A DNA stretch of 64,000 nt from Thermoanaerobaculia bacterium (lineage in GTDB: Bacteria > Acidobacteriota > Thermoanaerobaculia > Gp7-AA8): positions 12,154 to 76,153 of the forward strand of contig DATELQ010000004.1 of assembly GCA_035276475.1 (NCBI GenBank), read 5' to 3'. Numbering within the stretch: the first letter of the stretch is position 1; the number at the start of each line of letters is the position of its first letter. The notes under the pieces are model-generated. The model had not been told where the DNA came from, searched no databases, and was given only the letters and a program-made list of their open reading frames with translations. Positions 8,208 to 57,527 of this stretch are shown one piece after another. A program made the translations under genes and the position numbers.

Positions 8208-8228
8208 GGCGGAAAGTCTACGTGTTTC

Positions 8229-12638: not shown

Positions 12639-13184
12639 GTGGACGAAATCCAAGTCGAGGCAGCCGATTTCGGCATTCGCTTCGTCGCGCGCCTCGTCGA
12701 CTATCTTCCCGTGATCCTCGCCGGTGGGTTGAGCCTCGCCATCGCCTCGGCCGTGGCCACGGGTCCGGTGCCGGCAGAAAACGACGACAGCTTGGTGATC
12801 CGCATCGGCTTTCTCGTCGCCACGATCCTCTACCACGCGTTCAGCGAGTCCATCGGCGGCGCCAGTCTCGGCAAGCGGCTCTTCGGCCTCGAAGTCGTCA
12901 GCGAAGACCTCCGCCCCGCTACGCTTCTGCAGGGGTGGAAGCGCAGCCTGGCCTTCGTCGTCGACGGCTTCTTCTTCGGCCTTGTCGGCTACAACGCCAT
13001 GAAGAAGTCGCCCATCCGCCAGCGCATCGGCGACGGCTGGGCGAAGACACGCGTCGTCCTGCGCCGCTCGCTGCCGCCGGCATTGCGGCGCCCCACATCC
13101 ATCTTCGTCTTCTCACTGTTCGGCGCCCTCGGCATTGCGGCCGAGGGATTCGCGCTCGTACAGCTTTGCGCCACCTGGTTCTGA
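12639..13184 (+). CDS. RDD family membrane protein
   Basis: GTG start; 'RFVARLVD' and 'KRSLAFVVDGFFFG' RDD-like segments with TM helices. Confidence 0.65.
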   Translation: MDEIQVEAADFGIRFVARLVDYLPVILAGGLSLAIASAVATGPVPAENDDSLVIRIGFLVATILYHAFSESIGGASLGKRLFGLEVVSEDLRPATLLQGWKRSLAFVVDGFFFGLVGYNAMKKSPIRQRIGDGWAKTRVVLRRSLPPALRRPTSIFVFSLFGALGIAAEGFALVQLCATWF

Positions 13185-20705: not shown

Positions 20706-20762
20706 GCAACACTCCCCCTCGAATCGTTGAATCTGGACCTGCGAAGCTTATACTGCGCCGCC

Positions 20763-34276: not shown

Positions 34277-36133
34277 TCAGTTGAACAGGAACTCGAGCTT
34301 GTTGAGCAGCGCGAACTGCAGGTCTTCGGTCTTGCGATTGAGATCGCCGCTCTTGAGGTAATTGATGGCCGTGGCGCGCTCGCCCGTGTCGGGATAGCGC
34401 GCGAGCGTGGCGAGGTAGAGGGTGTCGGCGATCGTGCCGGGGTCCTTCGTCGCCGCCAGCGTCTTCGCCACGGTCGACGCCGAATTCGAGGCCCGGACGC
34501 GCGAGACGACGTTGTTGTCGTTCATCAGCGACAGCGCCTGCACGATCGAGCTGTCGCTGGCGCGCGGATCGTCGTCGCGATTCCCTCGCCCGAAGTTGTT
34601 GAGGAGCGTCCGGAACTGGCCGCCTTCCGTCGGATCGGGGAGCTGCATCGCCTTCGTCACCTGCGTCGCGGTCTGCCCCTGCGCGGTGGTGAGATTCATG
34701 GTGATGCCGACGCCCGTCGCCTTCACGACCGCGTCGAGGATCTCCTCCGACATCAGCCGGCGCGGATAGTGGCGCGCGTAGTACGGCGTCCACGTCTCGT
34801 TCCACGTCCCCGCGGTGTAGCGGGAGGAGAGCTGGTAGGCGTTCGACAGCACCATCGTCCGGAGGAGCGCGCGAATGTCGTACTGGCTGCTGACGAACGC
34901 GTTGGCAAGCTGCGTGAGGAGCTGCGGGTGCGTCGGCTGCAGCGTGGCGCCGTTCGCGAGCGTGGCCGGGTCCTGGCGATTGAGGTCGAACGAGTCGGCC
35001 GGCTCGACGATGCCGAGGCCGAAGATCTCTTTCCAGAGGTAGTTCACCGCGGCGCGGGCGAACTGCGGGTGCGCGGTGAGGATGCGACCGTAGGCGACGC
35101 GGCGCGGCTCGCCGGAGCGCGGCGTGTCGCCGCCTAGGAAGAACTCGGGGTCGACGAAGTTCTGGCCGTTGAGCGGCGTGCGCGGCGTCTTGTTGCCCGA
35201 CACCGTGTTCAGCAGGTAGCGGCCGGTCGTGTTGTCGGCGAGCGTCGTCTCCTGCTGCTGCGTGGCGGCGTCCTTGGCACGGGTGATCGTCACCTGCGAG
35301 AAGAAGGCGGCGTTCTTCCAGAAGTCGTAGCGCAGGCGCTTGGCCATCGCGCTGTTGACCTGCTCGAGGTGACCGAGACCGTTGTGGCAGGAGAGGCACT
35401 GCAGCGGCATCCCCAGGAAGCGCTGGCCGGTCGACGCGGACTCGTTGTCGTACGTGTCCTGGATCGGGCCGTTGTTCTGCTCGTCGCGGACGAAGTAGTT
35501 GGTCTCGCCGTTGGTGAAGCTCTTGCCGGCGCCGGCGATGACTTCGCGGACCATCTGGTCGTACGGCTTGCGGCCCTTGATGGAGTCGCGGATGTATTTG
35601 TAGTAGGCGTCGCGGCCGGGATATGACTCCACCGTGGCCGAGGCCACCTGCACGTTCTGCACGAGATCGCCGAACCACATGGTCCAGCGGTCGACGAAGG
35701 CGTCGCTGGCGAGGAGGCGGTCGATGGCCTTGGTGCGCTTGTCGATGCTCGGGTCGGCGAGGAAGGCCTTGACGTCGTCGGGGCTGGGGATCTCGCCGGT
35801 GAGGTCGACGGTGACGCGGCGGAGGAACTCGGTGTCGCTCGACGGGCCGGTCCAGTGGACGCCGTCCTTCGCCATCTTGCCGAAGATCTCGCTGTCGATG
35901 AAGTTCACAGGCGTGAACTGCCACGGATCGCCCTTGGGCGGGAGGGTGGCGCGCCGGCGAGGGGTGGGCGCGGCGGTGGGGGCGGCGAGCTCCGCGTTCG
36001 CGGAGATGCGGTGCCAGACGGCAGCGGGGCTCTTCGCCGCCGCGGCGGCGCGGCTGTACGTGCACTCGGGCTGCTGCGCTTGGGATGCAGCTCCAGCCAG
36101 TACGCCGACCAGGAAGAAAAGGGAGGGACGCAT
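34277..36133 (-). CDS. DUF1549/DUF1553 domain protein (PSCyt-like)
   Basis: Signal peptide; 'CLSCHN' heme-binding-like motif of DUF1549; typical partner of DUF1501 proteins. Confidence 0.85.
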   Translation of the reverse strand: MRPSLFFLVGVLAGAASQAQQPECTYSRAAAAAKSPAAVWHRISANAELAAPTAAPTPRRRATLPPKGDPWQFTPVNFIDSEIFGKMAKDGVHWTGPSSDTEFLRRVTVDLTGEIPSPDDVKAFLADPSIDKRTKAIDRLLASDAFVDRWTMWFGDLVQNVQVASATVESYPGRDAYYKYIRDSIKGRKPYDQMVREVIAGAGKSFTNGETNYFVRDEQNNGPIQDTYDNESASTGQRFLGMPLQCLSCHNGLGHLEQVNSAMAKRLRYDFWKNAAFFSQVTITRAKDAATQQQETTLADNTTGRYLLNTVSGNKTPRTPLNGQNFVDPEFFLGGDTPRSGEPRRVAYGRILTAHPQFARAAVNYLWKEIFGLGIVEPADSFDLNRQDPATLANGATLQPTHPQLLTQLANAFVSSQYDIRALLRTMVLSNAYQLSSRYTAGTWNETWTPYYARHYPRRLMSEEILDAVVKATGVGITMNLTTAQGQTATQVTKAMQLPDPTEGGQFRTLLNNFGRGNRDDDPRASDSSIVQALSLMNDNNVVSRVRASNSASTVAKTLAATKDPGTIADTLYLATLARYPDTGERATAINYLKSGDLNRKTEDLQFALLNKLEFLFN

Positions 36134-44409: not shown

Positions 44410-46587
44410 GTGAAGCGTCTCCTCGTTCTCCTTGTCCTCGGCGTAACCCCTGCCCTGTTCGCCTCCGTCGGCACAGTCCGGCAGAACTTTCTCGACTACT
44501 ACGCGGCCGCCGGCGCCGACCGCAGCGCCCCGCGCATGGCCGACGCGCTGGGCACGCTCGAGGCGCAGACGCGCGACGCCACCGCCCCCGGCTTCCTCCT
44601 CGCGGACGGCACGTGGAGCGACATCGACTACAAAGAAACGCCGAGCGGCGCGTGGTCGCCGTGGGACCACTTCCGCCGCCTGACCACGATGGCCAAGGCG
44701 TACCGAACGCCCGGCCAGCGCTACTACAACGACGAGACCCTGCGGCAGCAGATCGAGGCCGCGCTCGGCCAGGTGCCGTCGTTCTACGGCAAGACCACGC
44801 TGCCGGTCGGCAACTGGTGGTTCTGGACCCTCGGCGCGCCGCTCGACCTGGGGCCGACGCTCGTCCTGATGCGCGGCAGCGTCTCGCAAAAGATCTTCGA
44901 CGACTGCGTGGCCACGCTGCAGGTGCACATCGGCACGTCGCCCACCGCGAAGGGCCTGGTCGGACCGACGCCCGTCGGCGAGAACCTCGTCTGGTCGTGC
45001 TTCACGCACCTCTGTCTCGCCCTGGCGCGCGACGACGCCGCGATGCTCGCCGCCGTCGGCAGCGCCCTCGGCACTGCCTGCACGACAACGGCAGGCGACG
45101 GCATCCAGGTCGACTCCTCGTTCCACCAGCACGGCCCGCAGCTCTACACCGGCGGCTACGGCGGCTCGTTCGCCTACGACGTCTCGCGCCTCGTGCTGCT
45201 GCTGCGCAACAGCGAGTTCGCGCCGGCGCCGGCGGCGCTCAACAGCTTCGCCAACTACGTCGCCGACGGCATCGCCTGGTCGCTCTACGGCCCCTATTTC
45301 GACGTCTCGGTCGTCGGCCGCGAGGTGGCGCGCTCGTCGACGAGCGGCATCAACGGCGTGGCCGCGCTGCTGCAGGCGTCGACGTTCAACTCGACCCGCA
45401 ACGCCGAGATCAAGAGCGCCGCCGCGGCCGCGCTCCAGTCGTGGCGCTGGCCGCTCTCTCCAGAGCTCGCCGCGCTGGCGACGCAGACAACGACGAATGC
45501 AGCATGGCCCACCGGCCACCAGCACTACTACACCTCCGACTACACGGTGCACCGCCGCCCCACTTGGTTCGCCTCGGTGAAGATGTTCTCCGCGCGCACG
45601 AAGTCGGGCGAGAACACGAACGGCGAGAATCTCCTCGGTTCGCGCCAGTCCGACGGCCGCTTCTACCTCGTCATGAACGGCGACGAGTACTTCGGCAACG
45701 ACAGCTGGCCCGCGCTCGACTGGACGCGCCTCCCCGGCATCACCGTCGAGCAGAAGGCCGACGCGGCGGACGACCAGTACGGCTACGGCACGCGCCTCTT
45801 CGCCGGCGGCACGGGCGACGGAAGGAACGGCCTGTCGGCGATGGAGCTCGCGCCGGTCAACTCGGCGCTGACGGCGAGGAAGAGCTGGTTTTTCTTCGAC
45901 GACACGATCGTGTTCCTCACAAACAGCATCACGTCCCCGTCCTCTTACAGAGTGGAGACGATCATCAACCAGTGGCCGCTGCACGGCAGCGTCACGCGAA
46001 ACGGCAACTGGCTCGCCGCCGACAACGTCGGCTACTACGTCTACCCGCAGGCGGCGGCGCTGAACGTCTCGACCGCCCCGCGCACCGGCACCTGGGCCGC
46101 CCTCGGCGGCTCGACCGACACGACGCCGCGCACGCAGACGTTCCTCACGCTCTGGCTCGACCACGGCGCGACTCCGACGAACGCCGACGCCGCGTACGCG
46201 ATCGTCCCAGGCGCGAGCGTCGCGACGATGTCATCGTTCCTCCCGCCGACGATCCTCGCCAACAACGCCAACGTCTCCGCCGTGACGAGCGGCTCGACGA
46301 CGGCGATCGTCTTCTGGTCGCCGCGCGCGAGCGTCGCCGGCTACACCGCAGACGCCGCCAGCGTCGTCTACGCGACGACCACCGGAAGCGCGCTGCAGCT
46401 CGCCGCCGCCGACCCGACGAACGGCACCGGCGTCTTCCACGTGACCGTCCCCGGCCGCTGGCTCACGACCGACGTGCCGTCGACGTTCGACGGCCACGGC
46501 ACGACGCTGACGCTCCCCCGCGGCGGCGCCACGACGCGCGTGACGCTCAGTCCGCCGCCGGCGCGGCGAAGGGCGGCGGGAAAATGA
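44410..46587 (+). CDS. polysaccharide lyase family 8 (hyaluronate/chondroitin AC/xanthan lyase-like), secreted
   Basis: Signal peptide; 'GNWWFWTLGAP' Lyase_8_N motif, 'SSFHQHGPQLYTGGYGGSFAYD' catalytic His/Tyr region, 'RQSDGRFYLVMNGDEY'. Confidence 0.85.
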   Translation: MKRLLVLLVLGVTPALFASVGTVRQNFLDYYAAAGADRSAPRMADALGTLEAQTRDATAPGFLLADGTWSDIDYKETPSGAWSPWDHFRRLTTMAKAYRTPGQRYYNDETLRQQIEAALGQVPSFYGKTTLPVGNWWFWTLGAPLDLGPTLVLMRGSVSQKIFDDCVATLQVHIGTSPTAKGLVGPTPVGENLVWSCFTHLCLALARDDAAMLAAVGSALGTACTTTAGDGIQVDSSFHQHGPQLYTGGYGGSFAYDVSRLVLLLRNSEFAPAPAALNSFANYVADGIAWSLYGPYFDVSVVGREVARSSTSGINGVAALLQASTFNSTRNAEIKSAAAAALQSWRWPLSPELAALATQTTTNAAWPTGHQHYYTSDYTVHRRPTWFASVKMFSARTKSGENTNGENLLGSRQSDGRFYLVMNGDEYFGNDSWPALDWTRLPGITVEQKADAADDQYGYGTRLFAGGTGDGRNGLSAMELAPVNSALTARKSWFFFDDTIVFLTNSITSPSSYRVETIINQWPLHGSVTRNGNWLAADNVGYYVYPQAAALNVSTAPRTGTWAALGGSTDTTPRTQTFLTLWLDHGATPTNADAAYAIVPGASVATMSSFLPPTILANNANVSAVTSGSTTAIVFWSPRASVAGYTADAASVVYATTTGSALQLAAADPTNGTGVFHVTVPGRWLTTDVPSTFDGHGTTLTLPRGGATTRVTLSPPPARRRAAGK

Positions 46588-46761
46588 GCGCCGATCGAGA
46601 CAGGTATGGATTGAGCAACGACACTGTTGCGGCGTTGTTTATGGAATGTAATGGTTTCAGTAACTTCAACAACGACCTTAAACTAGGCTTATCATTCGCG
46701 CGTACTCCTGTCATGCTTGCGCCACTGGTGACGCACTGCAAACTGCCGAAAGGGGGCGCTC

Positions 46762-47055
46762 ATGCAAGCTACGGCGACCGTTCCGGAGCTTAGCCGCCGG
46801 CTTGGTGCCAATGCGCGCTCGCTGGTGCGGACATCGCCGGCCAACGCTCGCGTGACGGCGGCAGTCGTGCTCCTCCCGCATGCGCCTGTAAAGGAGATCA
46901 TCGCGCTCCTGCAGAAGGCTGGCTGCGAAATGCTCTATCGCGTCGATTCGCAGCACCTCCTCGGCGTCGACGCACCGGTCGGCCTGCTCGACCGTCTGGC
47001 GCGCCTCGACGGCGTCACGTACGTCGAAGTCGAATACTCGCTTCAGCCTTCCTGA
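46762..47055 (+). CDS. stand-alone subtilase propeptide/inhibitor I9-like protein
   Basis: 'VVLLPHAPVKEIIALLQKAGCEMLYRVDSQHLLGVDAPVGLLDRLARLDGVTYVEVEY' follows the Inhibitor_I9 pattern; AAGGGGG SD; 3' end overlaps convergent S8 gene by 13 nt. Confidence 0.5.
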   Translation: MQATATVPELSRRLGANARSLVRTSPANARVTAAVVLLPHAPVKEIIALLQKAGCEMLYRVDSQHLLGVDAPVGLLDRLARLDGVTYVEVEYSLQPS

Positions 47056-48860
47056 AGAAAGTCCTCCAGCGCAATCGTCTTCTCGCCGGCCGGCGTCAGC
47101 TCGAGCGCCTGCTTCACATTCAGCGACCCGAAGCCATAGGCCGCATCCGGTTTCTCCGGCGGATCGCTCGACGCACGCAGAATCGAACGGATCACCCAAC
47201 TGGTGAGCTCGGGGTTCTTCTGGAGCATCAGCGCGATCACGCCGGCCACGATCGGCGTGGCCATGCTCGTGCCGGACATCCTGAGCCGCACGCCCTTTTC
47301 GGGCGTGCCCTTCGCCTTGGTCGAGACGATGCCGGAGCCCGGCGCCACGAGATCGGGCTTCGTTCGTCCGTCCCGCGTGCCGCCGCGCGAGCTGTTGGGC
47401 GAGACCATCTTCGCAGCGCGATTGAGGTTGCCGACGGCCACGCAACGATGTGACGTGGCCGGCGTCGTCGTCGACCGGCGCGTGTCGCCGTCCGTCCCTT
47501 CGCCGATGAACTCCGGCTGGCTGTAACCCTTCCCGGAGCGCTCCACCCAGGCGTCGACCGTCCCGTGCCGCACGCGATCGGCGATCAAACCGATTCTCCA
47601 GGTGCCGGCGCTGGCGTCGCCGGAAATGCGGATGCGGATCCGCGCTTCGCCGTTTTCAGGCGCGAAGCGGACGGAATCGATTTCGACGTCGACGTCGCAC
47701 TTCGTCGTCAACACCTTCTCATAGGGCGCACGAACTTCATCCAGCGGCGGGTGCTTCTTATTTTCGTGCGGGCATTGCACGACGACACCCATTTGATCGA
47801 CGGCCGAATACCAGATCTCCACGATCGTCGGCGCGGATTTGGCGTGGTCGGGGGCAATCCTCAGCTGCAGCTCCCTCCGCTGGCCCTCTGTGAATTTCAA
47901 CGTCGCGTGCTGCGCCGGCTGATGCTGATTGCCGGCGGCGACGGCGGCGGCGTAGCCGCCGCTGGTGAGGTGGCTGTCGATGGTGCGCTCGAGAATCGAC
48001 TCGCCGTCGTGCGCGCCGAGGTTCTGTCCGAGGCTCATGTTGATGACGCAGGGGCGCCCCTTTTCCAGTGCTTTGGAAAAGATGTACGCGACCGCCGCCG
48101 TCAAATTCGTCGAATTCGTCAGCGTAACGTTCCGGTCCTCTTTCCGGGCCGCCACGAAAATGATATCGGCGTGCGGCGCGACGCCCACATAGGAACCGCC
48201 TTCGCGGCCGCCGGACGATCCGGAACGGCCATTGCCCGCCGCAATCCCGGTCACATGCGTTCCATGCTCCTGGGACTGATGCCGCACGACTTTCTCCGGG
48301 TCGGTCAAGGCCTCCGTCAAATACTTGTTGGTGTACTCGACGCCGCCGAATTGGTGCTCCGGATCCTCGAATTCGGGATCCTCCGCTTCTCTCTTCAGCG
48401 TCTGGTCCCACAAATAGAGAATGCGCGAGCTGTCGCCGTCGATGAAATCGGGCTGCCGCCAATCGAGACCATCGTCGATGATGCCGATGATCACGCCGCG
48501 GCCGCGGTTTTTCTGGTCGATCTCCGGAATGTCCGGAATGCCGAGGGCGGGAATGGTCTCGTCGAGGGCAAACGCGATCGGCGCCCCTCGCTCGAAGTAG
48601 CTCACTTCCGGCGCATCGTGGAGCGCGTCGATCTCCGGCAGCGCGAGATAGGCCGCCCACGTCTGTGGGGCGACGCGCATGCGAGGCTTGCCTTGCAAGG
48701 CCTTCGGCAGTTCCTCGCCGCGCAGCACCACGAGCAGCGGAACGAGCATCTCCTGTAAGGAGCCGTCGGCTGCCAGGCTGCCGACGAGACCGCTCGCTTC
48801 GTTCGAATGCCACTCGCGCATGAGGCGCCGAATCTCGGGATCCGCTTTCGAATATCGCAT
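47043..48860 (-). CDS. S8 family serine peptidase (subtilase), no signal peptide
   Basis: Asp 'IIGIIDDGLD', His 'HGTHVTGIAAG', Ser 'GTSMATPIVAG'; GAGGAG SD 8 nt before ATG at 48860; N-terminal region itself I9-like. Confidence 0.85.
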   Translation of the reverse strand: MRYSKADPEIRRLMREWHSNEASGLVGSLAADGSLQEMLVPLLVVLRGEELPKALQGKPRMRVAPQTWAAYLALPEIDALHDAPEVSYFERGAPIAFALDETIPALGIPDIPEIDQKNRGRGVIIGIIDDGLDWRQPDFIDGDSSRILYLWDQTLKREAEDPEFEDPEHQFGGVEYTNKYLTEALTDPEKVVRHQSQEHGTHVTGIAAGNGRSGSSGGREGGSYVGVAPHADIIFVAARKEDRNVTLTNSTNLTAAVAYIFSKALEKGRPCVINMSLGQNLGAHDGESILERTIDSHLTSGGYAAAVAAGNQHQPAQHATLKFTEGQRRELQLRIAPDHAKSAPTIVEIWYSAVDQMGVVVQCPHENKKHPPLDEVRAPYEKVLTTKCDVDVEIDSVRFAPENGEARIRIRISGDASAGTWRIGLIADRVRHGTVDAWVERSGKGYSQPEFIGEGTDGDTRRSTTTPATSHRCVAVGNLNRAAKMVSPNSSRGGTRDGRTKPDLVAPGSGIVSTKAKGTPEKGVRLRMSGTSMATPIVAGVIALMLQKNPELTSWVIRSILRASSDPPEKPDAAYGFGSLNVKQALELTPAGEKTIALEDFLQEG

Positions 48861-48871
48861 CGTCGTTCTCC

Positions 48872-49249
48872 TCAAGAGCCGATGGAGAGCCAAATCGTTT
48901 GCCGGTACCAGGCAAAGTGAAAATGCTGGAGGAAGTCCCTTCCCAGAATGTTGGCGTTCAACCTCGCAAAGCCGCCCACGATCGAAACGAAAAACGGTGC
49001 GGCACCGAGGTGAAGGAGGCACGGCGCGTAGTGCAGCACGGAGCCGGCCGGCGTCTTCAAAAACGGGGTCTTCGCTGCTTTTTCGACGTCGTATCCGAGG
49101 GCGGAGGCCAACGAGTCGTCGACGAGCGTGTGCGAGCTGCCGGTGTCGATGCTAAACACCGCCGGCAGGAACCGCCCCGATGGGCCGGCCACGGAAAGGA
49201 CGATCCTCGGCTCAGTTTCGCTGCGCGATTGGAACGTGAGCGCAGTCAT
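48872..49249 (-). CDS. retropepsin-like aspartic protease (Asp_protease_2 type)
   Basis: 'FSIDTGSSHTLV' DTG active-site motif and C-terminal 'NILGRDFL' flap/dimer motif as in retroviral proteases; ATGA coupling with upstream gene. Confidence 0.7.
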   Translation of the reverse strand: MTALTFQSRSETEPRIVLSVAGPSGRFLPAVFSIDTGSSHTLVDDSLASALGYDVEKAAKTPFLKTPAGSVLHYAPCLLHLGAAPFFVSIVGGFARLNANILGRDFLQHFHFAWYRQTIWLSIGS

Positions 49250-49827
49250 TCCGGCCGCTCCGGCATTCTCCAGAACAGAATCCCGTCCGTTTGGGCAATT
49301 CGTTGCGCGAGCTCGTCGAGCGTCGCCGCGGAATCGACGACCTCGGTGCCGTTGGCGGCGATCCACTTCGTGGCGTGCTGCTTTGCCAGAGACGCGTAGT
49401 TCTTGTGGACCCATTGCGCGGCCGGCGACCCTTGCCGCACGCGCCTCGTCGTGCACGCCTCCTGGATCGACGCGGCGACGCGCTGGTAGACATCGCCGCC
49501 CGACCGCGAATGCGCCGCGTTGATGTAGTCCCACACGCCGAGGCGCATCGCCCGTACGCAGAACGGCGCGTCGACGATCGGCGCAACGAGGATGACGACC
49601 GGGATCGCCGCGAGCAACGGCCGGATGTCCGAAAGCTCGCTCGTTTCGTTGTTCGTCCAGCGTACGGCGATTTCAAATTGCACTTGATCGCGCTGAATCT
49701 GTTCGACGGCTCCCGGGTGCGCCACGACGGCGGAGAGCGGGGTCTCATCGACGGTCGTGTGCTCGAGAAAATCCTTTACCTGGTTCATCACGCCGTTGTT
49801 CGTGGGGTCGAAGAGGATCACCCTCAT
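49246..49827 (-). CDS. receiver (REC)-like protein with degenerate phospho-acceptor site plus C-terminal unknown domain
   Basis: 'MRVILFDPTNNG' and 'PVVILVAPIVDAPFCVRAMRLGVWDYINAAH' match REC beta1 and beta4/alpha4-beta5; no Asp at the expected beta3 position; ATGA overlaps on both sides. Confidence 0.55.
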   Translation of the reverse strand: MRVILFDPTNNGVMNQVKDFLEHTTVDETPLSAVVAHPGAVEQIQRDQVQFEIAVRWTNNETSELSDIRPLLAAIPVVILVAPIVDAPFCVRAMRLGVWDYINAAHSRSGGDVYQRVAASIQEACTTRRVRQGSPAAQWVHKNYASLAKQHATKWIAANGTEVVDSAATLDELAQRIAQTDGILFWRMPERPE

Positions 49828-52800
49828 CCTCTGCCACCCCGCATCCTCGTCGGCAGTGTGATGAGGAATTCAGCGCCCGACTGCCGCTCCGGCGACGAGA
49901 TCGCTCCGGAATGGGCGCCGATGAAGCGCTTGGCGATAACCAGGTGATCGCCAGGATCGCCTCCGAACGAGGCCAACGCCTCGAGCTTGTCGGATGGCAG
50001 CGGCGGCCCTTGATCGGACAAGCGGATCTGGATGGTGTCGCCATTCGTGCCGAGGGAGAGCGACAGGGCCATCGGAAACGACGGCTCGGCGGCGGCGGCG
50101 GAACGGTCGCCGATGATCTCGGAGAGCGCGTTGTCGACGGCGACGGTGTCGACTTCCGCCTCCAGCCGGCCGGCAGGCAGGATCGGCTCGATGGCGACGT
50201 TGCCTGAGGCGTTTTGACGGTCGATGAACGCCCGGACGAACGCCGTCACGTCGACCCTCGACGGACGGATCTCCGGCTCGGCGCGAACCTCGGCGATGTC
50301 GTTGAAGATCTGTTCGATCTTCCGGAAGAGCTCCGTCAGCGCGCGCGTGTGGGTGACGTCGCTCCCCGCGCGCTCGAGCCGGTAGACGATTCCCTTCGCC
50401 ACTGTGAGGTTCGTTACGAGCTGTTCCGTTCCTTGCAGAACGACGCTGCGCATCGTCTCGTCTTTCGCGTCCGAGATCCTCGTCTCCTGCAGCGTCAGTT
50501 CATTGAGCGCGGCCCCCGCCTTTCCGATGGCCGCGAACATCGTCCGGTCGAACGAATGGAACCACCCGCGGGCGTGATGCCAGAGGTTCAGAACCGCCAG
50601 GCACTGGTCCTCATGGACAAGCGGAATGCCCACGAAGCCGTGGACCCAGGGCACCGGCGGACGAGCCGGCACGGAGACCTGGATGTCATACTCGAGAAAC
50701 GGCTCTTTTTGCTCGACGGCAATGTTGGTCAGGAACTTCGGGTCATTGGTAAGAAAGGAGAGGTCCTGTGTTTCGGATCCGGTCCAGTCTCCACTGATCG
50801 CGAACGTTTCCCACCGCGGCTCTCTCAGCACCATGAAACGCGCCAGATCGGCTCCCAATAAGCGGCACACGCGGTCGGTCCATTGTTGCAGCACGTGCTT
50901 CCGGCGCGTTCGCCCGGGCGGCAGCGGCGTGTCGTCCGACACCAAACTGAACCACTCCCAATCCGCCATTTTGGCAGTGGCCTCGAACGGATCCCGCGAT
51001 AGCAGCTTCGTCGCGTATTCGACCATGGCTTCGATTTTCTCAATGAGATCGTCGGAGAGCTCGTCGGCGTCGCTCGCGCGGTCGACGTTCACGTTCAAGA
51101 TGCCCTTGAATGCCGGCACAGGCCCTTTATGCGCCGTCGTGCTGATCCGCATGAGCAACACCGATTTGTCTTTGCTCGGCGACGCAATGAGCTTGGAGAG
51201 GTGTTGTGCGGAAACCTCAGTCGCCGCGGCCTTCCGCACGGATTTGTAGACCGTTTTCGCGCCGCCGACGGCCCGCAATGCGGCGAGCAGTTGCGCATTC
51301 TCAAAAAAGATCGGCGCCGGCACGGGCGAACGGCGCGGCCAGATGTCGAGGGCGACGAAGCGCCCTTCCTCGAACTCGTGATAAAAAACGACGGTCGCAT
51401 CGCGCCGCTCATTGTGAATGGCCTGAATGAGCGTGCGGATGGTGCGGTCGTTGTCGGGGACTTCGAGCATCAGGCGTTTGAGCCGCTCGTCCCACGGCAC
51501 GGGCTCGGCATCGTCGCCATATCCGAGGTCCGCGAAGAGATGCCCGGCCGCGCGCAGCCACTCGTGCCGGTATTGCGCTTCCTCCCGCGCGAAGGCCAAC
51601 CCGAGCAGGGCACGCTCGACCGCGGGCTGAAGATCCTTTTCCATGTTGGCCTTGCTGAGCTCCAGCGCCAGCGTCAGCTCCGTCTCGCGCGAGGCACAGG
51701 CGATGCGCAGCACGTCCGGAAGGTTGCGGATGAGCCGCTCCCGGTCGCTCTTGCCGAGGGCGCGGATACAGGCCGCGGCGCACGCTTCGTGCTCGCCGGC
51801 GTCGCCTCCCTCCACGAACGTCTTGTCGTGGACGGAAGTGAGGCGCCGCTCCACGTGCGCGGCGAGCGCGGCGAGGCTCGCCGGCGGCTTCGTCGATTTT
51901 TTATCGCGCTCGATGCGCCGGTCCACGAGCAACGTGATGATGGTGACGGTGTAGATCTCCAAATTCTCATTCGACGCGGCGGCGTCGAACAGACGCTCGA
52001 AGATCTCGTAGATTTTTCCGGGATCGCCGTACCCGCCCCCCTGCCTGCGCCAGGCTTCGTATCGCGCGGCCGCTTCGCGCAGCACATTGCGAACCCATTC
52101 CCCGTCGCCGGCCTGTGCGCGCCCTAAGAGTCGCTCGATGTTGCTGATGCCGTCGGGGCTGTTGAGGTCATAGTTCTCCTCATCGTCGAACAGCGCGGCG
52201 CTCGGCGACGGCATGGCCTCGTAATCAGCGTCGTCGCCCGACTCGACGAGCGTCTCGCCGCGCAGGAGCGCTTCCTTCTTCTCGTCGATGAACGCTAGGA
52301 GCCGGCTCGACTGCGCCGAATGCCGATACTCGGCGAGTTGGCGCACGGCCTCGGAACGCCCGAAGCGGTGCGACGATCCGGGCGAGTTGATCGACAGCCA
52401 TTGAAAGCTGACGATGTTCGCCCGCGACCGCTGGATGAACGCCGAGGCGATCTCCGGCGTCATCCGGTTGATGACGACGTAGATGACGGCCTCGCCCGCG
52501 TACGCCAGCGCCTCCAGGAGGCGCGCCACTTCCGTTCCCGACGAGGCGGCGAAGCAGAGCGCTGCGACCTTCATCCCTTCCAGGCCGAACCGGGCCCTGC
52601 CTTCGAGATCGTCGAGCGTCTTGATCGATGATGCCTTGCTGATCGACGGGCGGAGCGTCTCCGGCAGCGCCTGCTTGGCATCTTCGGCCAGCACGAGAAC
52701 GTCCGGCTTGAATCGATCGATCTCGTCGTGGATCGTCTGTTGAAAGGCAGCGTGCGAAAGCAGCTTCCGCGGCCAGATGTACGTCGGAATCTCCTGTCCG

Positions 52801-55256
52801 CGAAAGATGACCCGGTTCCGGCTCAAGGCGTGGGCATCGGCGAGGAGGCGCCAGAAGCGGCCGTCGGTGAGCTTCTTCTCGCGGTCGCTGGTGCGGCGCA
52901 GCGGCAGAAGCGAATCGCTGTCGATCGTCACCATGCGCCACTCGGCTTCCGGGCCGCTCGTCGGCTTCTCGCGGAGTTTCTCCACCGGCACTGTTGCCAG
53001 CGCTTTGAAGCGGCCTTTTCCGCGCAACGCGGAGAGGGCCTTCCATTCGCTCCATTCCGACGCCGACAGCGTGTCGAGGAGGCAGAGGATCCATCCCTCG
53101 ACATTGCTCTTGGCGAACTCCTCCGCCGCAAGGTTCAGCGTCCGCCCCGAACCGCTGACGCCGACCAGGAAGACCACTCGTTTGCCGGGACGCAATTCCT
53201 TGCCGAGCTCTCGGACGGCGTCTCCGCCATGCACGTCCTTGTAGTGCGGCAGATTCACCGTGTCGATGGCCGGGAGCGCTTTGAGGGCCAGCGGCAGGAG
53301 CCGGTCGGCATAAATCGAAAACGAGATGGCCATCTGCGGCGCAATGCGGAGGATCTCCTTCTCCAGCCACTCGTCGGCGAGGCTTTGCATCTCGTATTTG
53401 TGCTCGAGAAACCGCGGCGGGACGTAGACGTCGCAGAAGCGATTGCCGGGGAGCAGATACCAGACTCTCTCCTCCTCGGCGCGCTGCCGGGCGATGTCCT
53501 CCTGAACGAGGGTCTCGACGTGGATGGGGAGGAGAGCGCGGAACGCGGCGTGGCTGAGCGCGAAGACGTCGAAGGCCGGCTCGATGTAGACGATCGTTCC
53601 GCGGCTGACCATGCGCACGACCGACTGGTTTCGGGACAAGGCGTCGTGGACCCAGTTGCGCTCCGCCTTCGTCAACGCGCTGTCGCCGTCGTGGCTGAAG
53701 CGGTCGAGAGTGACGGGCTCTCCTTCGATGGCCGCGTTGATTCCGTCGACGAGAACGCGGCGGGCGAGCTCCGTGTCGCCCGCGTCGCCCGCTTTCCTGA
53801 GATTCTCGTTGTCGACGAGAAAGTTGTGCACGACGCTGCCGGCGCGCGTCTTCACCGTCACCGCCGGAGCGAGAACGCCGTGCTCGCGCCAGAGCTCGAC
53901 CAGCGGCTCCGCCGTCGAGAGGATGGTCTGCGTCCGCGTCGGAGCATTCAGCAGCCAGAGACGATGCTTGGCGGAAACGAGGAACGTCCGGGCGATCGCC
54001 GCGGCCGCGCTCTTGAGCGACTCCTCCTGCCACCCGTCCGTGCCGCTCATGTCGACGAAGAGCACGTCGTGCGGCTCCAGCGTGGTCACTCTCTGCGAGA
54101 TCTGGTCGGCGTCCGCCGCCGTCTCCAGCGGAAGGGCGACGGGGTTGAACGCGGGAAGGTCGCTCGCCGTCGTGTGAACGAATACGTAGGTCTTGCGCTT
54201 CTTGGGCGTTCGATGCGGCAGAAGGATCTGGAAGTAGCTTCCGGCCGGCGCCCACGGGCCCGGCGTCTCCCTCGGCGCCAGGGCGTCGCGCTGCAGCGGA
54301 TCGTTGAAGAAGTCCCAGAACAACTCCACGCCGCCGCGGCGGCCTTCGAAGTCGTATCCGGAATAGGCATAGAGCACGCCGCGGAACTGGCGGATTTTCT
54401 CTTTGACCGCCCACAGGCCGCGCGTGTGCTGCCGAAGCGTTTGCTTGCTCGTCGAATAGGCGTCGAAGGCCCACTCGGCGATCGCTTCCGGCCGCGTCTT
54501 CTCGAAAGCCTTTGCCGCCTTCCGCAGCGAATCGACAAAGCCGACGCCCGCGTCGCCGATGACGATCTCCGTCACGCCGTCGTGGCTGATGTTTTGGAAC
54601 AGCCGCGCCTCCCATTCGGCGGCGTGAACATTGCGCTGCGCGGCGGTGCGAGCGTCGGGGTTGCTCACGTGCGCGGTTGCGAATCCCGGCACCGTGCCGG
54701 CGGAATGTTCGGCGGCGTTTGTCCAGAGCTCGTGAACGACGACGTCGGCCAGCCCGGAGACGTCGTACTCATCGGAGAAGCCGGCCGTCTCCAGCACGTG
54801 CGCCAGCTCCTTGTCCGCCGACCAGTGCTGCAGGTCGGGAGACGTATTGGCCGCCTGGATGGCTTGCAGATCGAGCACCCGCGGCGTCTTGCTCTGGCGC
54901 CACTGCTGCGCGTCCGCAGCGTTGACGTTCACCTTGAATTGATGTTCGTGAGCGAGGGCGATGAATTTCCACCGCTCCAGAAAGGCGCTCGTCGTTCCCG
55001 AGGCCGGAAGCTCGACCGAAACCGTGGTCGCGCCGGCAACGGCCAGCCGCTTCACGATCAGCGACAGCGCCACCAGCGGGAGGTGGCCGATCCACGTCGC
55101 GCGGCGCAGATCGATGACCGCGTCGACGTTGCCGAGCTGCCCCGAGCCGCGACGTCCGAACTGCGCTTCGTACTGCTGTAAGAGGTTCTGGTACTGCTGA
55201 CTGCCGAGATAACCGTCCTCGCAGTCGGCGGGGACACCGACAGTAATCGTCGCCAA
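49824..55256 (-). CDS. 1810-aa multidomain sensor protein: N-terminal GHKL-ATPase-like segment, P-loop-like/PRTase-like middle repeats, GAF-like domain, C-terminal histidine-kinase HATPase_c
   Basis: N-terminal 'VVVHELWTNAAEHS ... EIVIGDAGVGF'; central 'RVVFLVGVSGSGRTL'; GAF-like 'VHGFVGIPLVHEDQCLAVLNLW'; C-terminal N-box 'VDNALSEIIGD', 'IRLSDQGPPLP', 'GGDPGDHLVIAKRFIGAHSGAI'. Confidence 0.85.
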   Translation of the reverse strand: MATITVGVPADCEDGYLGSQQYQNLLQQYEAQFGRRGSGQLGNVDAVIDLRRATWIGHLPLVALSLIVKRLAVAGATTVSVELPASGTTSAFLERWKFIALAHEHQFKVNVNAADAQQWRQSKTPRVLDLQAIQAANTSPDLQHWSADKELAHVLETAGFSDEYDVSGLADVVVHELWTNAAEHSAGTVPGFATAHVSNPDARTAAQRNVHAAEWEARLFQNISHDGVTEIVIGDAGVGFVDSLRKAAKAFEKTRPEAIAEWAFDAYSTSKQTLRQHTRGLWAVKEKIRQFRGVLYAYSGYDFEGRRGGVELFWDFFNDPLQRDALAPRETPGPWAPAGSYFQILLPHRTPKKRKTYVFVHTTASDLPAFNPVALPLETAADADQISQRVTTLEPHDVLFVDMSGTDGWQEESLKSAAAAIARTFLVSAKHRLWLLNAPTRTQTILSTAEPLVELWREHGVLAPAVTVKTRAGSVVHNFLVDNENLRKAGDAGDTELARRVLVDGINAAIEGEPVTLDRFSHDGDSALTKAERNWVHDALSRNQSVVRMVSRGTIVYIEPAFDVFALSHAAFRALLPIHVETLVQEDIARQRAEEERVWYLLPGNRFCDVYVPPRFLEHKYEMQSLADEWLEKEILRIAPQMAISFSIYADRLLPLALKALPAIDTVNLPHYKDVHGGDAVRELGKELRPGKRVVFLVGVSGSGRTLNLAAEEFAKSNVEGWILCLLDTLSASEWSEWKALSALRGKGRFKALATVPVEKLREKPTSGPEAEWRMVTIDSDSLLPLRRTSDREKKLTDGRFWRLLADAHALSRNRVIFRGQEIPTYIWPRKLLSHAAFQQTIHDEIDRFKPDVLVLAEDAKQALPETLRPSISKASSIKTLDDLEGRARFGLEGMKVAALCFAASSGTEVARLLEALAYAGEAVIYVVINRMTPEIASAFIQRSRANIVSFQWLSINSPGSSHRFGRSEAVRQLAEYRHSAQSSRLLAFIDEKKEALLRGETLVESGDDADYEAMPSPSAALFDDEENYDLNSPDGISNIERLLGRAQAGDGEWVRNVLREAAARYEAWRRQGGGYGDPGKIYEIFERLFDAAASNENLEIYTVTIITLLVDRRIERDKKSTKPPASLAALAAHVERRLTSVHDKTFVEGGDAGEHEACAAACIRALGKSDRERLIRNLPDVLRIACASRETELTLALELSKANMEKDLQPAVERALLGLAFAREEAQYRHEWLRAAGHLFADLGYGDDAEPVPWDERLKRLMLEVPDNDRTIRTLIQAIHNERRDATVVFYHEFEEGRFVALDIWPRRSPVPAPIFFENAQLLAALRAVGGAKTVYKSVRKAAATEVSAQHLSKLIASPSKDKSVLLMRISTTAHKGPVPAFKGILNVNVDRASDADELSDDLIEKIEAMVEYATKLLSRDPFEATAKMADWEWFSLVSDDTPLPPGRTRRKHVLQQWTDRVCRLLGADLARFMVLREPRWETFAISGDWTGSETQDLSFLTNDPKFLTNIAVEQKEPFLEYDIQVSVPARPPVPWVHGFVGIPLVHEDQCLAVLNLWHHARGWFHSFDRTMFAAIGKAGAALNELTLQETRISDAKDETMRSVVLQGTEQLVTNLTVAKGIVYRLERAGSDVTHTRALTELFRKIEQIFNDIAEVRAEPEIRPSRVDVTAFVRAFIDRQNASGNVAIEPILPAGRLEAEVDTVAVDNALSEIIGDRSAAAAEPSFPMALSLSLGTNGDTIQIRLSDQGPPLPSDKLEALASFGGDPGDHLVIAKRFIGAHSGAISSPERQSGAEFLITLPTRMRGGRG

Positions 55257-55337
55257 TCCGGCTCCTCTCCCACACCTCGACCTGTCGTAGGAGTGACGGA
55301 GAGCGAAGTTTCCCTACCCGGTGGTTGCGACCGCCGC

Positions 55338-56153
55338 CTACGGATTCACATGATCCCAAGCCAGCGTCTCGTAATACATCGTCTGCATTCTGGCCACATT
55401 GAGATTCCATAGGTCTCGCCGCGTCTTCCCCCGCCGGCTGTCCTGGTGATAGCCGCGGAGGCTGTCGTCGTGATCGCGATAGGCCATGGAAAGCTCTTCC
55501 GAGACGGCGATGCGCAGACCCGCATTGCAAAGGTACAGAGCCGTCAGCTTCGCAACGAGTACGTCCTCGACGTTGACAAAGTCCGGATGGTAGACGCCGT
55601 CGATGCGCAGCGTCTCCTGGTTGTACGTTTTCATCCCCGCCAATACCTCCGGTTTCCACATGATCGAACTGACGGGATACGGCGCGATGCCTCGCGCGAC
55701 ATAGTCGCGGGCCGACAAGCTGAAATCCGGTTGATGAATGATCCGCCGACGCTGGCGGTCAATGGCGATCGGGCCGAGCGCCGCTCCGACATCAGCCGGC
55801 TCGAGCGCGTTCGCGCGCGACGCGATGTCGAACATGAGGTCATCGGAATGCAGCGGGGTGACGGCGGCGATGGTCTCGTGCCCTTTGAGCACGGCATCGA
55901 TGCCAAAGTTGAGCGCATTGGAAGCGGTCTTGAGATCGCTCTTCTTTCGCTCCCTCCGCAGATACCGGATCCTCCGGTCGTCGTATTTCTTCAAGACCCG
56001 CTGGATCCCGTCGGGATCGGGCGACCCGTCATCGACAATCACGTGCAGATGCGCCGACGGAAGTTTGTGGACGCTGGACACGCAGCGATCGAAGAGCGTC
56101 AATCGGGAAGGAAACTCGGGCGATACGTAGACGGGGGTGATGATCGCGATCAA
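55338..56153 (-). CDS. glycosyltransferase family 2
   Basis: 'IAIITPVYVSPEF' and 'VIVDDGSPD' GT2 DXD-region. Confidence 0.8.
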   Translation of the reverse strand: MIAIITPVYVSPEFPSRLTLFDRCVSSVHKLPSAHLHVIVDDGSPDPDGIQRVLKKYDDRRIRYLRRERKKSDLKTASNALNFGIDAVLKGHETIAAVTPLHSDDLMFDIASRANALEPADVGAALGPIAIDRQRRRIIHQPDFSLSARDYVARGIAPYPVSSIMWKPEVLAGMKTYNQETLRIDGVYHPDFVNVEDVLVAKLTALYLCNAGLRIAVSEELSMAYRDHDDSLRGYHQDSRRGKTRRDLWNLNVARMQTMYYETLAWDHVNP

Positions 56154-56179
56154 GGTCGTTCGCCCTTAAAATACAACCC

Positions 56180-56830
56180 ATGCGAACGCTGGCGCTGCTG
56201 CTCCTGGCTGCCGCAATCCCCGGCTTCCCCTCAAAGCCCCAACTCCTCGGCGCCCGCTCCGCGCACTACGACCTTCGCGTCGCGCGCAGCCTCGTCTCGC
56301 CGCAGGAGGTGGCGTACGACGTCACCGTCGTCGACCTCGAGAGCGGCAAGACCGTGCTGAAGTCGCGCGTGACGGGCAAGCAGGCGGAAGCGATCGACGT
56401 CGATGGGCAAGAAGACATCCGCGTCCACCTCGGCTACACCGAGCATTTCTTCTCCGCCACCCTCACCGCGCGCGGCGTCGAAGAGCTGCGCACGTGGTGG
56501 CAGCTCGAGCCGCTGACGCCGCAGGTCATCCACGCGCCGGGCGCCTTCCGCGTCGGCGGCGAGGTCGCGCCGCCCATCGCCGTCCGCCGCGTCGAGCCGC
56601 TCTATCCCGAAGCCGCGCGGCGCAACGGCGTTCGCGGCAGCGTCGTCCTGCAGGTGCTCGTCGGGAAGGACGGGCGCGTCAAGGATGCCGTCGTCGTCCA
56701 AGGCTTGCCGTACGGCGTCGGCGACGCGGCGCTCGACTCCATCCGCAAGTGGGAATTCCGTCCGGCCACGCGCAACGGCGTACCGGTCGACGCCATCTTC
56801 GACATCACCTATAGCTTCAGAATGTGGTGA
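56180..56830 (+). CDS. TonB C-terminal domain protein, secreted
   Basis: Signal peptide; C-terminal 'YPEAARRNGVRGSVVLQVLVGKDGRVKDAVVVQGLPYGVGDAALDSIRKWEFRPA' TonB_C fold. Confidence 0.7.
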   Translation: MRTLALLLLAAAIPGFPSKPQLLGARSAHYDLRVARSLVSPQEVAYDVTVVDLESGKTVLKSRVTGKQAEAIDVDGQEDIRVHLGYTEHFFSATLTARGVEELRTWWQLEPLTPQVIHAPGAFRVGGEVAPPIAVRRVEPLYPEAARRNGVRGSVVLQVLVGKDGRVKDAVVVQGLPYGVGDAALDSIRKWEFRPATRNGVPVDAIFDITYSFRMW

Positions 56831-56837
56831 GGCACTC

Positions 56838-57527
56838 ATGCGAAAACTGCCGCTCCTCCTGCTCTTCGCCGCCCTCCCGACCTTCGCCGCAACTCTCGGC
56901 GCCCGCTCCGCGCACCACGAGCTGCGCCTCGAGCGCAACGTCGTCTCCGCCGAGCAGATCGCGTACGACGTCACCGTCGTCGATCTCGACAGCGGCAAGA
57001 CCGTCCTGAACGCGCACCTCAGCGGCAAGCCGGGCGAGGCGCTCGACGCCACCGGCGGCGACAAAGGCCAAGCCGTCCGCGTCCGCCTCGCCTATTCCGA
57101 GCACTTCTTCTCCGCGACCGTCAACGTCATCGACGGCAAGACCATCGTCGACGAGTTCCGCACCTGGTGGCAGCTCGAGCTCCAGCGCGCGGCACCCGCA
57201 GCAACACCGCCCAATGCCATGGCGCCGTACCGCGTCGGCGGCGACGTCAAGGCGCCGGTCGTCATGTACCGCGTCGCGCCGAAATACACCGCCGAGGCGC
57301 GGCAGAACCACACCAGCGGCATCGTCATCCTCGAGGCCATCATCGACAAGGATGGCCGCGTGAAGAACGCCGCGGTCTTGAAAGGCCTCCCCGACGGTCT
57401 CGACCAAGCGGCGCTCGACGCCGTCAAGCAATGGGAATTCCGGCCCGCCACCCTCGCCGGCCAGCCCGTCGAAGTCATCTTCAACCTCACCATCAACTTC
57501 AAGCTCGACGAACCGAAGGAGAACTGA
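56838..57527 (+). CDS. TonB C-terminal domain protein, secreted (tandem paralog)
   Basis: Same architecture as the upstream gene, ~50% identical by eye; start chosen inside ORF 56685..57527. Confidence 0.7.
   Translation: MRKLPLLLLFAALPTFAATLGARSAHHELRLERNVVSAEQIAYDVTVVDLDSGKTVLNAHLSGKPGEALDATGGDKGQAVRVRLAYSEHFFSATVNVIDGKTIVDEFRTWWQLELQRAAPAATPPNAMAPYRVGGDVKAPVVMYRVAPKYTAEARQNHTSGIVILEAIIDKDGRVKNAAVLKGLPDGLDQAALDAVKQWEFRPATLAGQPVEVIFNLTINFKLDEPKEN

Follow-up and report, generated by a model that had tools for sequence, protein, structure and literature searches.

The Detocs system comprises a histidine kinase (DtcA), a receiver protein that serves as a 'buffer' (DtcB) and a receiver-effector (DtcC), and protease-activates-protease cascades are known in bacterial immunity from type III CRISPR, in which the cascade leads from SAVED-CHAT to PCaspase. 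A further precedent is the subtilisin-like protease PopC, which lacks a signal peptide and is held by the co-encoded small protein PopD; PopD is removed upon an intracellular signal, by (p)ppGpp-dependent degradation, and PopC is secreted via the TonB-dependent transporter Oar (PMC6434023). The present analysis concerns a block of five genes in a stretch of 64,000 nucleotides (nt) of DNA from a Thermoanaerobaculia bacterium (Acidobacteriota), which is referred to as the window. The block encodes a giant sensor-like protein, a receiver-like adaptor, a retropepsin-like aspartic protease, an S8 subtilase and a free-standing protein resembling a subtilase prodomain (Table 1). Conserved gene order, tight coupling of the genes, exchange of effectors, co-occurrence of the DUF5678 tail of the adaptor with the retropepsin, apparent paralogy of the free-standing protein to the subtilase prodomain and a mobility/conflict context suggest that the block may be a horizontally mobile and self-contained module for conflict or programmed death, in which a sensor acts through an adaptor on a protease cascade; to this tentative reading a probability of roughly 0.45 was assigned.

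With its function predicted from the genes alone, the block appears to lie outside every known kind of system: the plan of sensor, transducer, swappable degradative effectors and inhibitor is familiar, whereas the parts and their wiring appear to be new. A literature search for this gene set found no description, and PADLOC 2.0 gave no significant match for the giant protein, the adaptor, the retropepsin or the prodomain-like protein, in agreement with an earlier note on this DNA, which had been aware of no described system of this composition. IetS models matched weakly and partially (6e-6 or worse) and no protein of the block matched IetA. No bacterial gasdermin (bGSDM) is encoded in the block.

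The locus resembles Detocs in having a large cytoplasmic sensor gene of histidine kinase shape followed by a small receiver-fold protein and degradative effectors, and in the swapping of effectors among relatives. Detocs, however, needs two receivers, one as buffer and one fused to the effector, whereas here a single receiver is fused to DUF5678 and the effectors are separate genes; moreover, the effectors here are proteases with an inhibitor, and the sensor has additional N-terminal GHKL, STAS and phosphoribosyltransferase (PRTase) modules. Gasdermin systems also encode a dedicated protease (caspase-like C14 or CHAT; a subtilase in fungi) with a sensor region, but no gasdermin was found in the window or at eight of the nine loci, the proteases carry no fused repeat or NACHT sensors, and the block additionally contains a retropepsin and an inhibitor. 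The partner-switching pairs RsbW/RsbV and SpoIIAB/SpoIIAA likewise combine a GHKL module with STAS-like domains; unlike them, the block carries all of these modules in one 1,810-amino acid (aa) chain and has no sigma factor. PopC and PopD, for their part, come without a giant sensor, a receiver-like adaptor or a retropepsin.

Organization of the operon

All five open reading frames (ORFs) translated cleanly. On a Logan contig of sequencing run SRR5195140 (locus L001), whose 193-aa protein is identical to that of the window, a second gene caller returned the same five genes (1810, 193, 125, 605 and 97 aa). Sequence inspection showed an ATGA overlap between the giant and adaptor genes (49827-49824, ggaggATGAgggtg) and another between the adaptor and retropepsin genes (49249-49246, ccggaATGActgcg). 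The retropepsin stop codon (48872) and the ATG of the S8 gene (48860) are separated by 11 nt, GGAG included; the earlier note had correctly recognized a tight junction here, but its 12-nt gap was the difference between the two coordinates. The four minus-strand genes, encoding the giant protein, the adaptor, the retropepsin and the S8 subtilase, form a translationally coupled operon. The start codon of the giant gene at 55256 is preceded by GGAGAGGAG, and homologues of the giant protein share the start position (MATITVGVP versus MVITVGVP).

The gene for the 97-aa protein converges with the S8 gene, and their 3' ends overlap by 13 nt (47043-47055). GC content by codon position was coding-like for all five genes, with values of 0.76/0.46/0.76 for the 97-aa ORF, which also has a ribosome-binding site (GGGGG). 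The five ORFs, both ATGA overlaps, the convergent overlap and an AT-rich intergenic stretch had all been described in the earlier note, and direct reading of the sequence agreed with it on each; the GC content falls to about 0.38-0.55 at 46580-46700. No signal peptide and no clear membrane segment were found in any of the five proteins.

The GC content at third codon positions (GC3) was 0.76-0.84 in the block versus 0.92-0.94 in most flanking genes, which hints at horizontal acquisition, and the five-gene block is rare and was probably acquired horizontally.

Within the low-GC stretch, a consensus scan identified one promoter-like site versus 0.1 expected. As promoter rules for Acidobacteriota are not established, this site suggests only weakly that the inhibitor gene would have its own transcription unit. 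The PL8 lyase gene upstream has a terminator-like hairpin at 46615-46630, before the promoter-like site, and an Rfam scan of 46000-56500 detected no RNA family.

Table 1. Features of the five-gene block, in coordinates of the window
Feature	Position	Strand	Remark
Giant sensor gene, 1810 aa	49824..55256	-	TTG start
N-terminal module of giant protein, residues 1-365: putative STAS-like alpha/beta region, then GHKL ATPase (predicted)	54162..55256	-	motif conservation
STAS-like domain, residues ~370-470	53847..54149	-	
Two PRTase-like domains, residues ~630-950	52407..53369	-	degenerate phosphoribosyl pyrophosphate (PRPP) loops
Two GAF-like domains, residues ~1255-1580	50517..51494	-	
DHp-like hairpin and degenerate HATPase_c, residues ~1590-1810	49827..50489	-	pseudo-histidine kinase in window clade
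Adaptor, 193 aa: pseudo-receiver and C-terminal DUF5678-like domain	49246..49827	-	ATGA overlap with giant gene
Retropepsin-like aspartic protease, 125 aa (D35-T-G, ILGRDFL)	48872..49249	-	ATGA overlap; Pfam
S8 subtilase, 605 aa; N-terminal prodomain at about residues 40-100	47043..48860	-	Pfam
Prodomain-like (I9-type) protein, 97 aa, putative trans-inhibitor of S8	46762..47055	+	convergent with S8 gene
Promoter-like site	46666..46695	+	low-GC stretch, 67 nt upstream of 97-aa gene; consensus scan

Conservation and exchange of effectors

Metagenome scans and a retropepsin-profile search identified the system at no fewer than nine independent metagenomic loci, and the core family comprises about 12 full-length lineages. 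The giant proteins share 25-53% identity between loci and the flanking genes differ at every locus; the earlier note had proposed a search for neighbourhood conservation, and the recurrence of the order in unrelated contigs excludes a one-off juxtaposition. The architecture of the window and L001 (giant protein, receiver-DUF5678 adaptor, retropepsin, S8, convergent prodomain-like gene) was also found at L004, L005, L009 and L015 and, with a split adaptor and a truncated S8, at L002 and L003. The giant and adaptor genes overlap by 4 nt at all five loci checked (L004, L005, L006, L014 and L015), and most other junctions are tight.

At a second group of loci (L006 to L008, and L014 with the same architecture as L006), the giant protein, the receiver-DUF5678 adaptor and the retropepsin are followed by three replacement genes, which encode an alpha/beta hydrolase with a GHSLGG motif (lipase-like), a Peptidase_C14 protein (HG...DAC) that matched the PADLOC 'caspase' model, and a Y4kD_C protein. 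The last of these (351-365 aa; L006 18827-19882, L014 9266-10363) had a precomputed PF27295 match and no match in the copy of Pfam that was scanned. L016 contains a fragmented giant gene, the adaptor, the retropepsin and the lipase-like hydrolase, in whose gene the contig ends. A neighbour-joining tree built from the giant proteins showed C14-type loci nested among the S8-type loci, indicating that effectors have been exchanged on a constant core of sensor, adaptor and retropepsin. The swap agrees with a modular sensor/effector design, and every effector involved is a degradative enzyme.

A variant locus, L013 (1-5608), encodes the C-terminal part of a giant protein with canonical histidine kinase boxes (N, G1 and G2), a canonical receiver, a different S8 of about 424 aa and, on the same strand, a prodomain-like protein of about 81 aa, and adjoins a tyrosine integrase gene. 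Both DUF5678 and the retropepsin are missing from L013, so that the two appear and disappear together. L013 may represent an ancestral, phosphorelay-competent form.

The giant protein yielded only five homologue clusters among 5.8e9 proteins, and a profile search of the same set found no new full-length members, returning only proteins that share the C-terminal GAF/histidine kinase part. A search with the alignment of the giant protein in 185,579 GTDB species-representative genomes gave 41 pattern matches and no relative. The system seems to be restricted to uncultured lineages from soil, Acidobacteriota among them, which would explain why genome-based defence screens have missed it.

In two independent samples (L002 15373-18202 and L003 6139-8968), the adaptor is split into a 132-aa protein and a 74-aa DUF5678 piece, and the S8 is N-terminally truncated to 392 aa, with loss of its Asp and His regions, which suggests either a copy in decay or an assembly error common to both samples.

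Domain composition of the giant sensor protein

The giant protein consists of an N-terminal STAS-like and GHKL module, a STAS-like domain, two PRTase-like domains, a helical region, two GAF-like domains and a C-terminal unit made up of a dimerization and histidine phosphotransfer (DHp) hairpin and a degenerate catalytic and ATP-binding (CA) domain. The two histidine kinase-type ATPase regions and the GAF-like region described in the earlier note were all supported, while the STAS-like and the two PRTase-like domains had been overlooked.

The strictly conserved catalytic motifs of the protein are those of the N-terminal GHKL domain, not of the C-terminal CA domain. Residues E176, N180, D235, G237, G239 and G280 were invariant in the family and in 27 members of a wider superfamily, and the N (E-x3-N), G1 (D-x-G-x-G) and G2 boxes are all present, from which ATPase activity is predicted. 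The N-terminal GHKL domain of the window protein had no Pfam match; a HATPase_c match was found in a distant superfamily relative (P0037, residues 189-297, E 4.6e-9), a precomputed HATPase_c_2 match was available for P0005, and HATPase_c_2-type matches occurred in three of the 27 superfamily members. No significant match to the first 1,400 residues was obtained with Pfam, NCBIfam or PADLOC, and an N-terminal profile had no match among PDB sequences. Residues 1-130 would be STAS-like as judged from their sequence pattern, the AlphaFold2 (AF2) model being poor in this part. An hhalign comparison of the N-terminal part with SpoIIAB gave a meaningless result, so that an RsbW-type assignment draws on faint Pfam matches only.

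Fold matches identified the PRTase fold in the giant protein and included 5vog, a PRTase solved with bound ppGpp. In the window the PRPP loops read VGVSGSGRT and CFAASSGTE in place of DDxxxTGxT, and the acidic loop (DD-x3-T/S-G-x-T) is thus lacking, whereas the consensus of the wider superfamily retains DDGxxSGxT. The PRTase-like domains of the window are probably ligand-binding rather than catalytic.

A DHp-CA fold in the giant protein and a CheY-like fold in its partner are both present. In the window, however, the C-terminal kinase has Gln in the H box, Asp for Asn in the N box, DQGPP as its G1 box and a deleted ATP lid, which sets it apart from the kinase of Detocs. Throughout the clade of the window the H box has Gln, the N box contains Asp or Phe, G1 reads DQGPP or DDGPP, and the ATP lid is absent. 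Across the family the H-box position is occupied by His, Asp, Gln, Leu or Arg, with no conserved His.

The receiver-like adaptor and the retropepsin-like protease

The receiver domain of the window adaptor had no Pfam match, and a profile of the adaptor family matched solved receivers in the PDB at 7.7e-9. The receiver-like nature of this protein, as proposed in the earlier note, was thereby upheld, and the DUF5678 tail, which matched weakly in the window and above the cut-off in the L006 orthologue, had escaped it. A DUF5678 profile found no credible match in the PDB. In the window receiver the phospho-acceptor position is occupied by Trp, and the conserved Thr and Lys are lost, in contrast to the receiver of Detocs, which has the Asp. 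The acceptor position is Trp or Met in the window clade, Asp in L005, L013, L014 and L015, and Glu in L006, L009 and L016. The two-component-like sensor/receiver pair of the earlier note is no working phosphorelay in the window, where phospho-His and phospho-Asp are both missing and the ATP-binding boxes of the kinase-like module are degenerate. Because both kinase and receiver are degenerate, a Detocs-style phosphorelay is unsupported in the window, and Detocs serves as a loose analogy only.

Close to the C-terminus of the adaptor, a few residues from the stop codon (window 49246-49270) and just upstream of the retropepsin start, lies an invariant W-R-[ML]-P motif. Hydrophobic-Pro is the classic scissile dipeptide of retropepsins, and the adaptor end therefore looks like a retropepsin site.

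The 125-aa protein scored 25.3 bits against Asp_protease_2 (cut-off 24.3), had its best PDB profile matches in the XMRV, EIAV and FIV proteases and ApRick, and had a weak TIGR02281 match. Residues D35, G37, G103 and D105 were invariant in six orthologues, and the D-T/S-G and G-x-D-h-L motifs are kept. Pfam score, active-site motifs and PDB matches all agree with the retroviral-type aspartic protease named in the earlier note. A search with the retropepsin profile returned eight clusters, three of which were traced to new loci (L014, L015 and L016), while the others were proteins of the window or of known loci, as judged by length, contig or identity, or lay on very short contigs; in this family-profile search the retropepsin subfamily was found only with the present system. 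It resembles APRc/ApRick of Rickettsia and other clan AA proteins of the TIGR02281 type in being a single-lobe D-T/S-G protease of ~125-150 aa. APRc, however, is membrane-embedded and stand-alone, whereas the proteins of the window family are soluble, operon-specific and always encoded after a DUF5678-tailed partner.

The S8 subtilase and the free-standing prodomain-like protein

The 605-aa protein matched Peptidase_S8 (PF00082) with an E value of 8e-41, its residues D129, H199, N311 and S532 were invariant in five orthologues, and its first 30 residues contained no N-terminal hydrophobic segment, all of which bears out the S8 subtilase without a signal peptide of the earlier note. Its best NCBIfam matches were CspBA (1.4e-53) and CspC (1e-37), neither of which came near its family cut-off; the CspB/CspBA model (NF040809) matched residues 77-584 with 181.9 bits versus a cut-off of 1250, which places the protein outside that family. 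Like the clostridial Csp proteins (CspB, CspBA and CspC), it is a subtilase that lacks a signal peptide and retains an N-terminal prodomain. It differs from them in its non-spore-forming Acidobacteriota host, in having no SleC-like substrate gene, and in the additional free-standing prodomain gene and retropepsin.

Subtilase propeptides inhibit their cognate enzymes tightly, and I9 inhibitors also occur as free-standing proteins, such as PBI2 of yeast and POIA1 of Pleurotus. The 97-aa protein shows an alpha/beta propeptide pattern ending in V-x-Y-V-E-x-D/E. A Pfam scan (E <= 1) matched it to no family, Inhibitor_I9 included, and neither NCBIfam nor PADLOC gave a match; its homologues have a precomputed match to PF26036 (Peptidase_inhib_put), and its L005 orthologue has a weak CspB_prodomain match. 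The 17 top PDB matches of the family profile were all Tk-subtilisin propeptides or precursors, with weak E values of 0.03-0.65, and hhalign aligned the family with the S8 prodomain (residues 3-95) at an E value of 9.6e-5 and 58% probability. Together these four lines of evidence suggest that the 97-aa protein is of the prodomain type, and its best description would be a free-standing paralogue of the S8 prodomain. With the I9 inhibitors listed in MEROPS (subtilisin propeptides and the free-standing PBI2 and POIA1) it shares the size range of about 70-100 aa and the propeptide pattern, the likeness being at profile level only and inhibition being predicted. The tail-to-tail position of the inhibitor gene is kept at L002, L004, L005, L009 and L015. 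The earlier note was thus right in substance, in that the gene is subtilase-prodomain-like by profile and its product of a putative inhibitor type; a Pfam Inhibitor_I9 match is lacking, and the Csp-like prodomain of the S8 itself and its probable paralogy to the 97-aa protein had been overlooked.

A motif in the 97-aa protein, SRRLG, was considered as a Tat signal and rejected, since its twin arginine varies among homologues and is not followed by a hydrophobic h-region.

Proposed mechanism and alternative explanations

If the block is a protease cascade, the pseudo-histidine kinase end of the giant protein would provide a docking surface for the receiver-like adaptor, through a contact of the histidine kinase-response regulator type without phosphotransfer. 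ATP turnover by the N-terminal GHKL domain and ligand binding by the PRTase, GAF and STAS domains would decide whether the adaptor is held or released. The DUF5678 tail would control the retropepsin, either by keeping it monomeric or through the W-R-[M/L]-P end acting as a tethered pseudo-substrate, and dimerization or release of the adaptor would allow the retropepsin, an obligate dimer, to assemble. The retropepsin would then strip the S8 subtilase of its brakes, both the prodomain of the S8 itself and the prodomain-like inhibitor encoded in trans, and the freed S8 would degrade cellular or invader proteins, resulting in growth arrest or cell death. In the sister clade, the same core of sensor, adaptor and retropepsin would drive the lipase-like hydrolase and the caspase-like protease.

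Several observations weigh against this cascade. The only ground for placing the S8 inside the cell is that it lacks a signal peptide, which is no proof of cytoplasmic action, and PopC shows that such reasoning can fail. By eye, no hydrophobic-Pro cleavage site is conserved across loci in the linker between the S8 prodomain and catalytic domain. The receiver Asp is retained in L005, L014 and L015, suggesting that phosphorylation may matter in part of the family. The AF2 models are of low confidence (pLDDT 55 and 61), and domain contacts are not readable from them. The neighbours of the block in the window are housekeeping genes (a PL8 lyase, an ABC exporter, a GT2 protein, two TonB_C proteins and an FG-GAP protein), and the defence island for which the earlier note had proposed a check is not found there. 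Defence-type neighbours occur at some loci only: a bGSDM gene (PADLOC 4e-66) and an integrase gene adjoin the system at L005, a PLD/DrmC-like gene at L004, a RES toxin gene at L015 and an integrase gene at L013. The S8 is the only protein of the block with a PADLOC 2.0 match, through the generic 'subtilase' model, and the giant protein had no match in plasmids or phages (tblastn) or in IMG/VR.

A release mechanism like that of PopC is the main rival, though a less likely explanation: a leaderless S8, serving in signalling or scavenging, would be held in a complex with its inhibitor until a signal from nutrition or nucleotides, (p)ppGpp for example, perceived through the PRTase and GAF domains, led the retropepsin to destroy the inhibitor, followed by export through an Oar-like, TonB-dependent transporter. 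The two TonB_C genes about 1 kb upstream of the window operon, the Oar-type transporter that adjoins the L009 system, the ppGpp-bound 5vog among the PRTase fold matches, and the metabolic rather than defensive context of the window are all in accordance with this. However, TonB/Oar-type neighbours were found at only two of ~9 loci, and such genes are very abundant in Acidobacteriota; the swap to caspase-like and lipase-like proteins suits cell-death effectors better than a single exported signalling protease; the gasdermin, integrase, RES or PLD genes beside other loci fit poorly; and the low GC3 together with the patchy distribution suggests an accessory mobile module. PopD, which is removed by a housekeeping protease, is not known to resemble a prodomain.

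An ordinary, Detocs-style phosphorelay, in which the giant kinase phosphorylates the 193-aa regulator and the latter switches the proteases allosterically, is improbable. DHp-CA and receiver folds in adjacent genes are what such a relay would require, and L013 is canonical in its N, G1 and G2 boxes as well as in its receiver, L005 keeps the H-box His, the N-box Asn and the receiver Asp, Thr and Lys, and L014 and L015 keep the receiver Asp; yet the kinase boxes and the receiver acceptor, Thr and Lys are degenerate in the window clade, the H-box His is not conserved across the family, the acceptor residue is Glu in three orthologues, and strict catalytic conservation resides in the N-terminal GHKL domain rather than the C-terminal CA domain. 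A true phosphorelay is thus unlikely in the window clade and possible in L013 and L005. There is likewise little chance that the S8 and the prodomain-like protein are simply a toxin and its antitoxin, unlinked to the neighbouring giant signalling protein. An S8/inhibitor pair does occur in L013 without retropepsin and DUF5678, and the inhibitor gene seemingly has its own promoter, but the giant, adaptor, retropepsin and S8 genes are coupled and stay together in every S8-type locus at sensor identities of 25-53%, the core of sensor, adaptor and retropepsin persists where the S8 pair is replaced, and the family-profile search found the retropepsin subfamily nowhere else. Finally, this high-GC DNA is rich in long spurious ORFs, 70 of at least 60 aa in 14 kb; coding-like GC, significant domain matches and an order kept in at least nine independent loci nevertheless make a chance juxtaposition or spurious ORFs next to impossible, and conservation refutes it.

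If the cascade reading is correct, a zymogen-style cascade in which an aspartic protease precedes a serine or cysteine protease, with dedicated inhibitors, would be a new design principle for conflict or cell-death systems, and a bacterial zymogen cascade would draw on three unrelated protease clans. A two-component pair converted into a pure protein-docking device would control it, and retropepsin-like proteases and DUF5678 would obtain their first defined prokaryotic roles, the former as the first prokaryotic signalling retropepsin. Even under a PopC/PopD-like mechanism the block would amount to a portable switch that encodes everything needed for the regulated release of a protease.

Relatives of the giant protein

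With the N-terminal module as query, an exhaustive hidden Markov model search yielded 348 clusters at E <= 1e-3, a number that fell to 83 at E <= 1e-10 and to 18 at E <= 1e-30. This wider superfamily consists of proteins of 1,450-1,770 aa with HATPase_c and Pribosyltran domains, whose coupled or adjacent downstream partners vary. At L098, L099, L100 and L102, where the giant proteins have 1,500-1,770 aa, the partner genes overlap the giant gene or lie within about 15 nt of it. The partners included a metallophosphoesterase, located beside PrimPol and integrase genes, TCAD9/APH kinase-like proteins, one near NACHT/WYL/SIR2 genes and one with orotidine monophosphate decarboxylase and NUDIX genes, and a canonical receiver. 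The 27 superfamily members showed only sporadic similarity to PRTase-toxin and GajB models of PADLOC.

The giant GHKL/PRTase proteins therefore appear, from their sequences, to constitute an uncharacterised superfamily with nucleotide-related partners. A more far-reaching and rather doubtful proposal is that the GHKL-STAS-PRTase-GAF-pseudo-histidine kinase proteins might be an unrecognised superfamily of at least 348 clusters of cytoplasmic, immune-receptor-like sensors that respond to a nucleotide or protein cue and have swappable effectors. In the present branch, a pseudo-two-component docking pair would license the retropepsin, which would start a cascade either by destruction of prodomain-type inhibitors of a subtilase or by activation of a caspase-like protease and a lipase. 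The superfamily of about 350 clusters, with metallophosphoesterases, kinase-like proteins and proteases among its partners, is not covered by any defence catalogue.

Genomic context

At L005, the bGSDM gene is followed by genes for 762-aa and 388-aa proteins without a recognisable protease domain; this group (5193-9735, minus strand) lies head-to-head with the orthologous operon at 10001. Within this 25-kb locus, the only recognisable protease genes near the bGSDM gene are those for the S8 and the retropepsin in the divergent operon; an M13 peptidase gene is located ~6 kb away, beyond unrelated metabolic genes. This raises the question of whether the gasdermin may be a substrate of the S8 or the retropepsin.

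The two TonB_C genes of the window are located at 56180-57527 on the plus strand, and the Oar-type TonB-dependent transporter gene at L009 (CarboxypepD_reg, Plug and barrel) at 18715-21528 on the minus strand. Their adjacency may recall the Oar-dependent secretion of PopC, or it may be a coincidence in the TonB-rich Acidobacteriota.

A GT2-like gene (55338-56153, minus strand) lies 81 nt upstream of the giant gene on the same strand and shares the low GC3 of the block (0.78, versus 0.92-0.94 in most flanking genes). The two may have been acquired together; the GT2-like gene, whose Pfam match is weak (26.8 bits), shows no conservation at other loci.

Elsewhere in the window are three ordinary chromosomal genes, which encode a PAS-GGDEF-EAL protein (4008-5786, minus strand), a UvrD helicase (12935-15292, plus strand) and a PSCyt2/PSD1 (DUF1549/DUF1553) protein (34277-36133, minus strand). 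The UvrD is 94% identical to that of an Acidobacteriota soil metagenome-assembled genome, and most of its next-best matches are in Thermoanaerobaculia metagenome-assembled genomes. The three genes confirm that most of the window is chromosomal and not part of an island.

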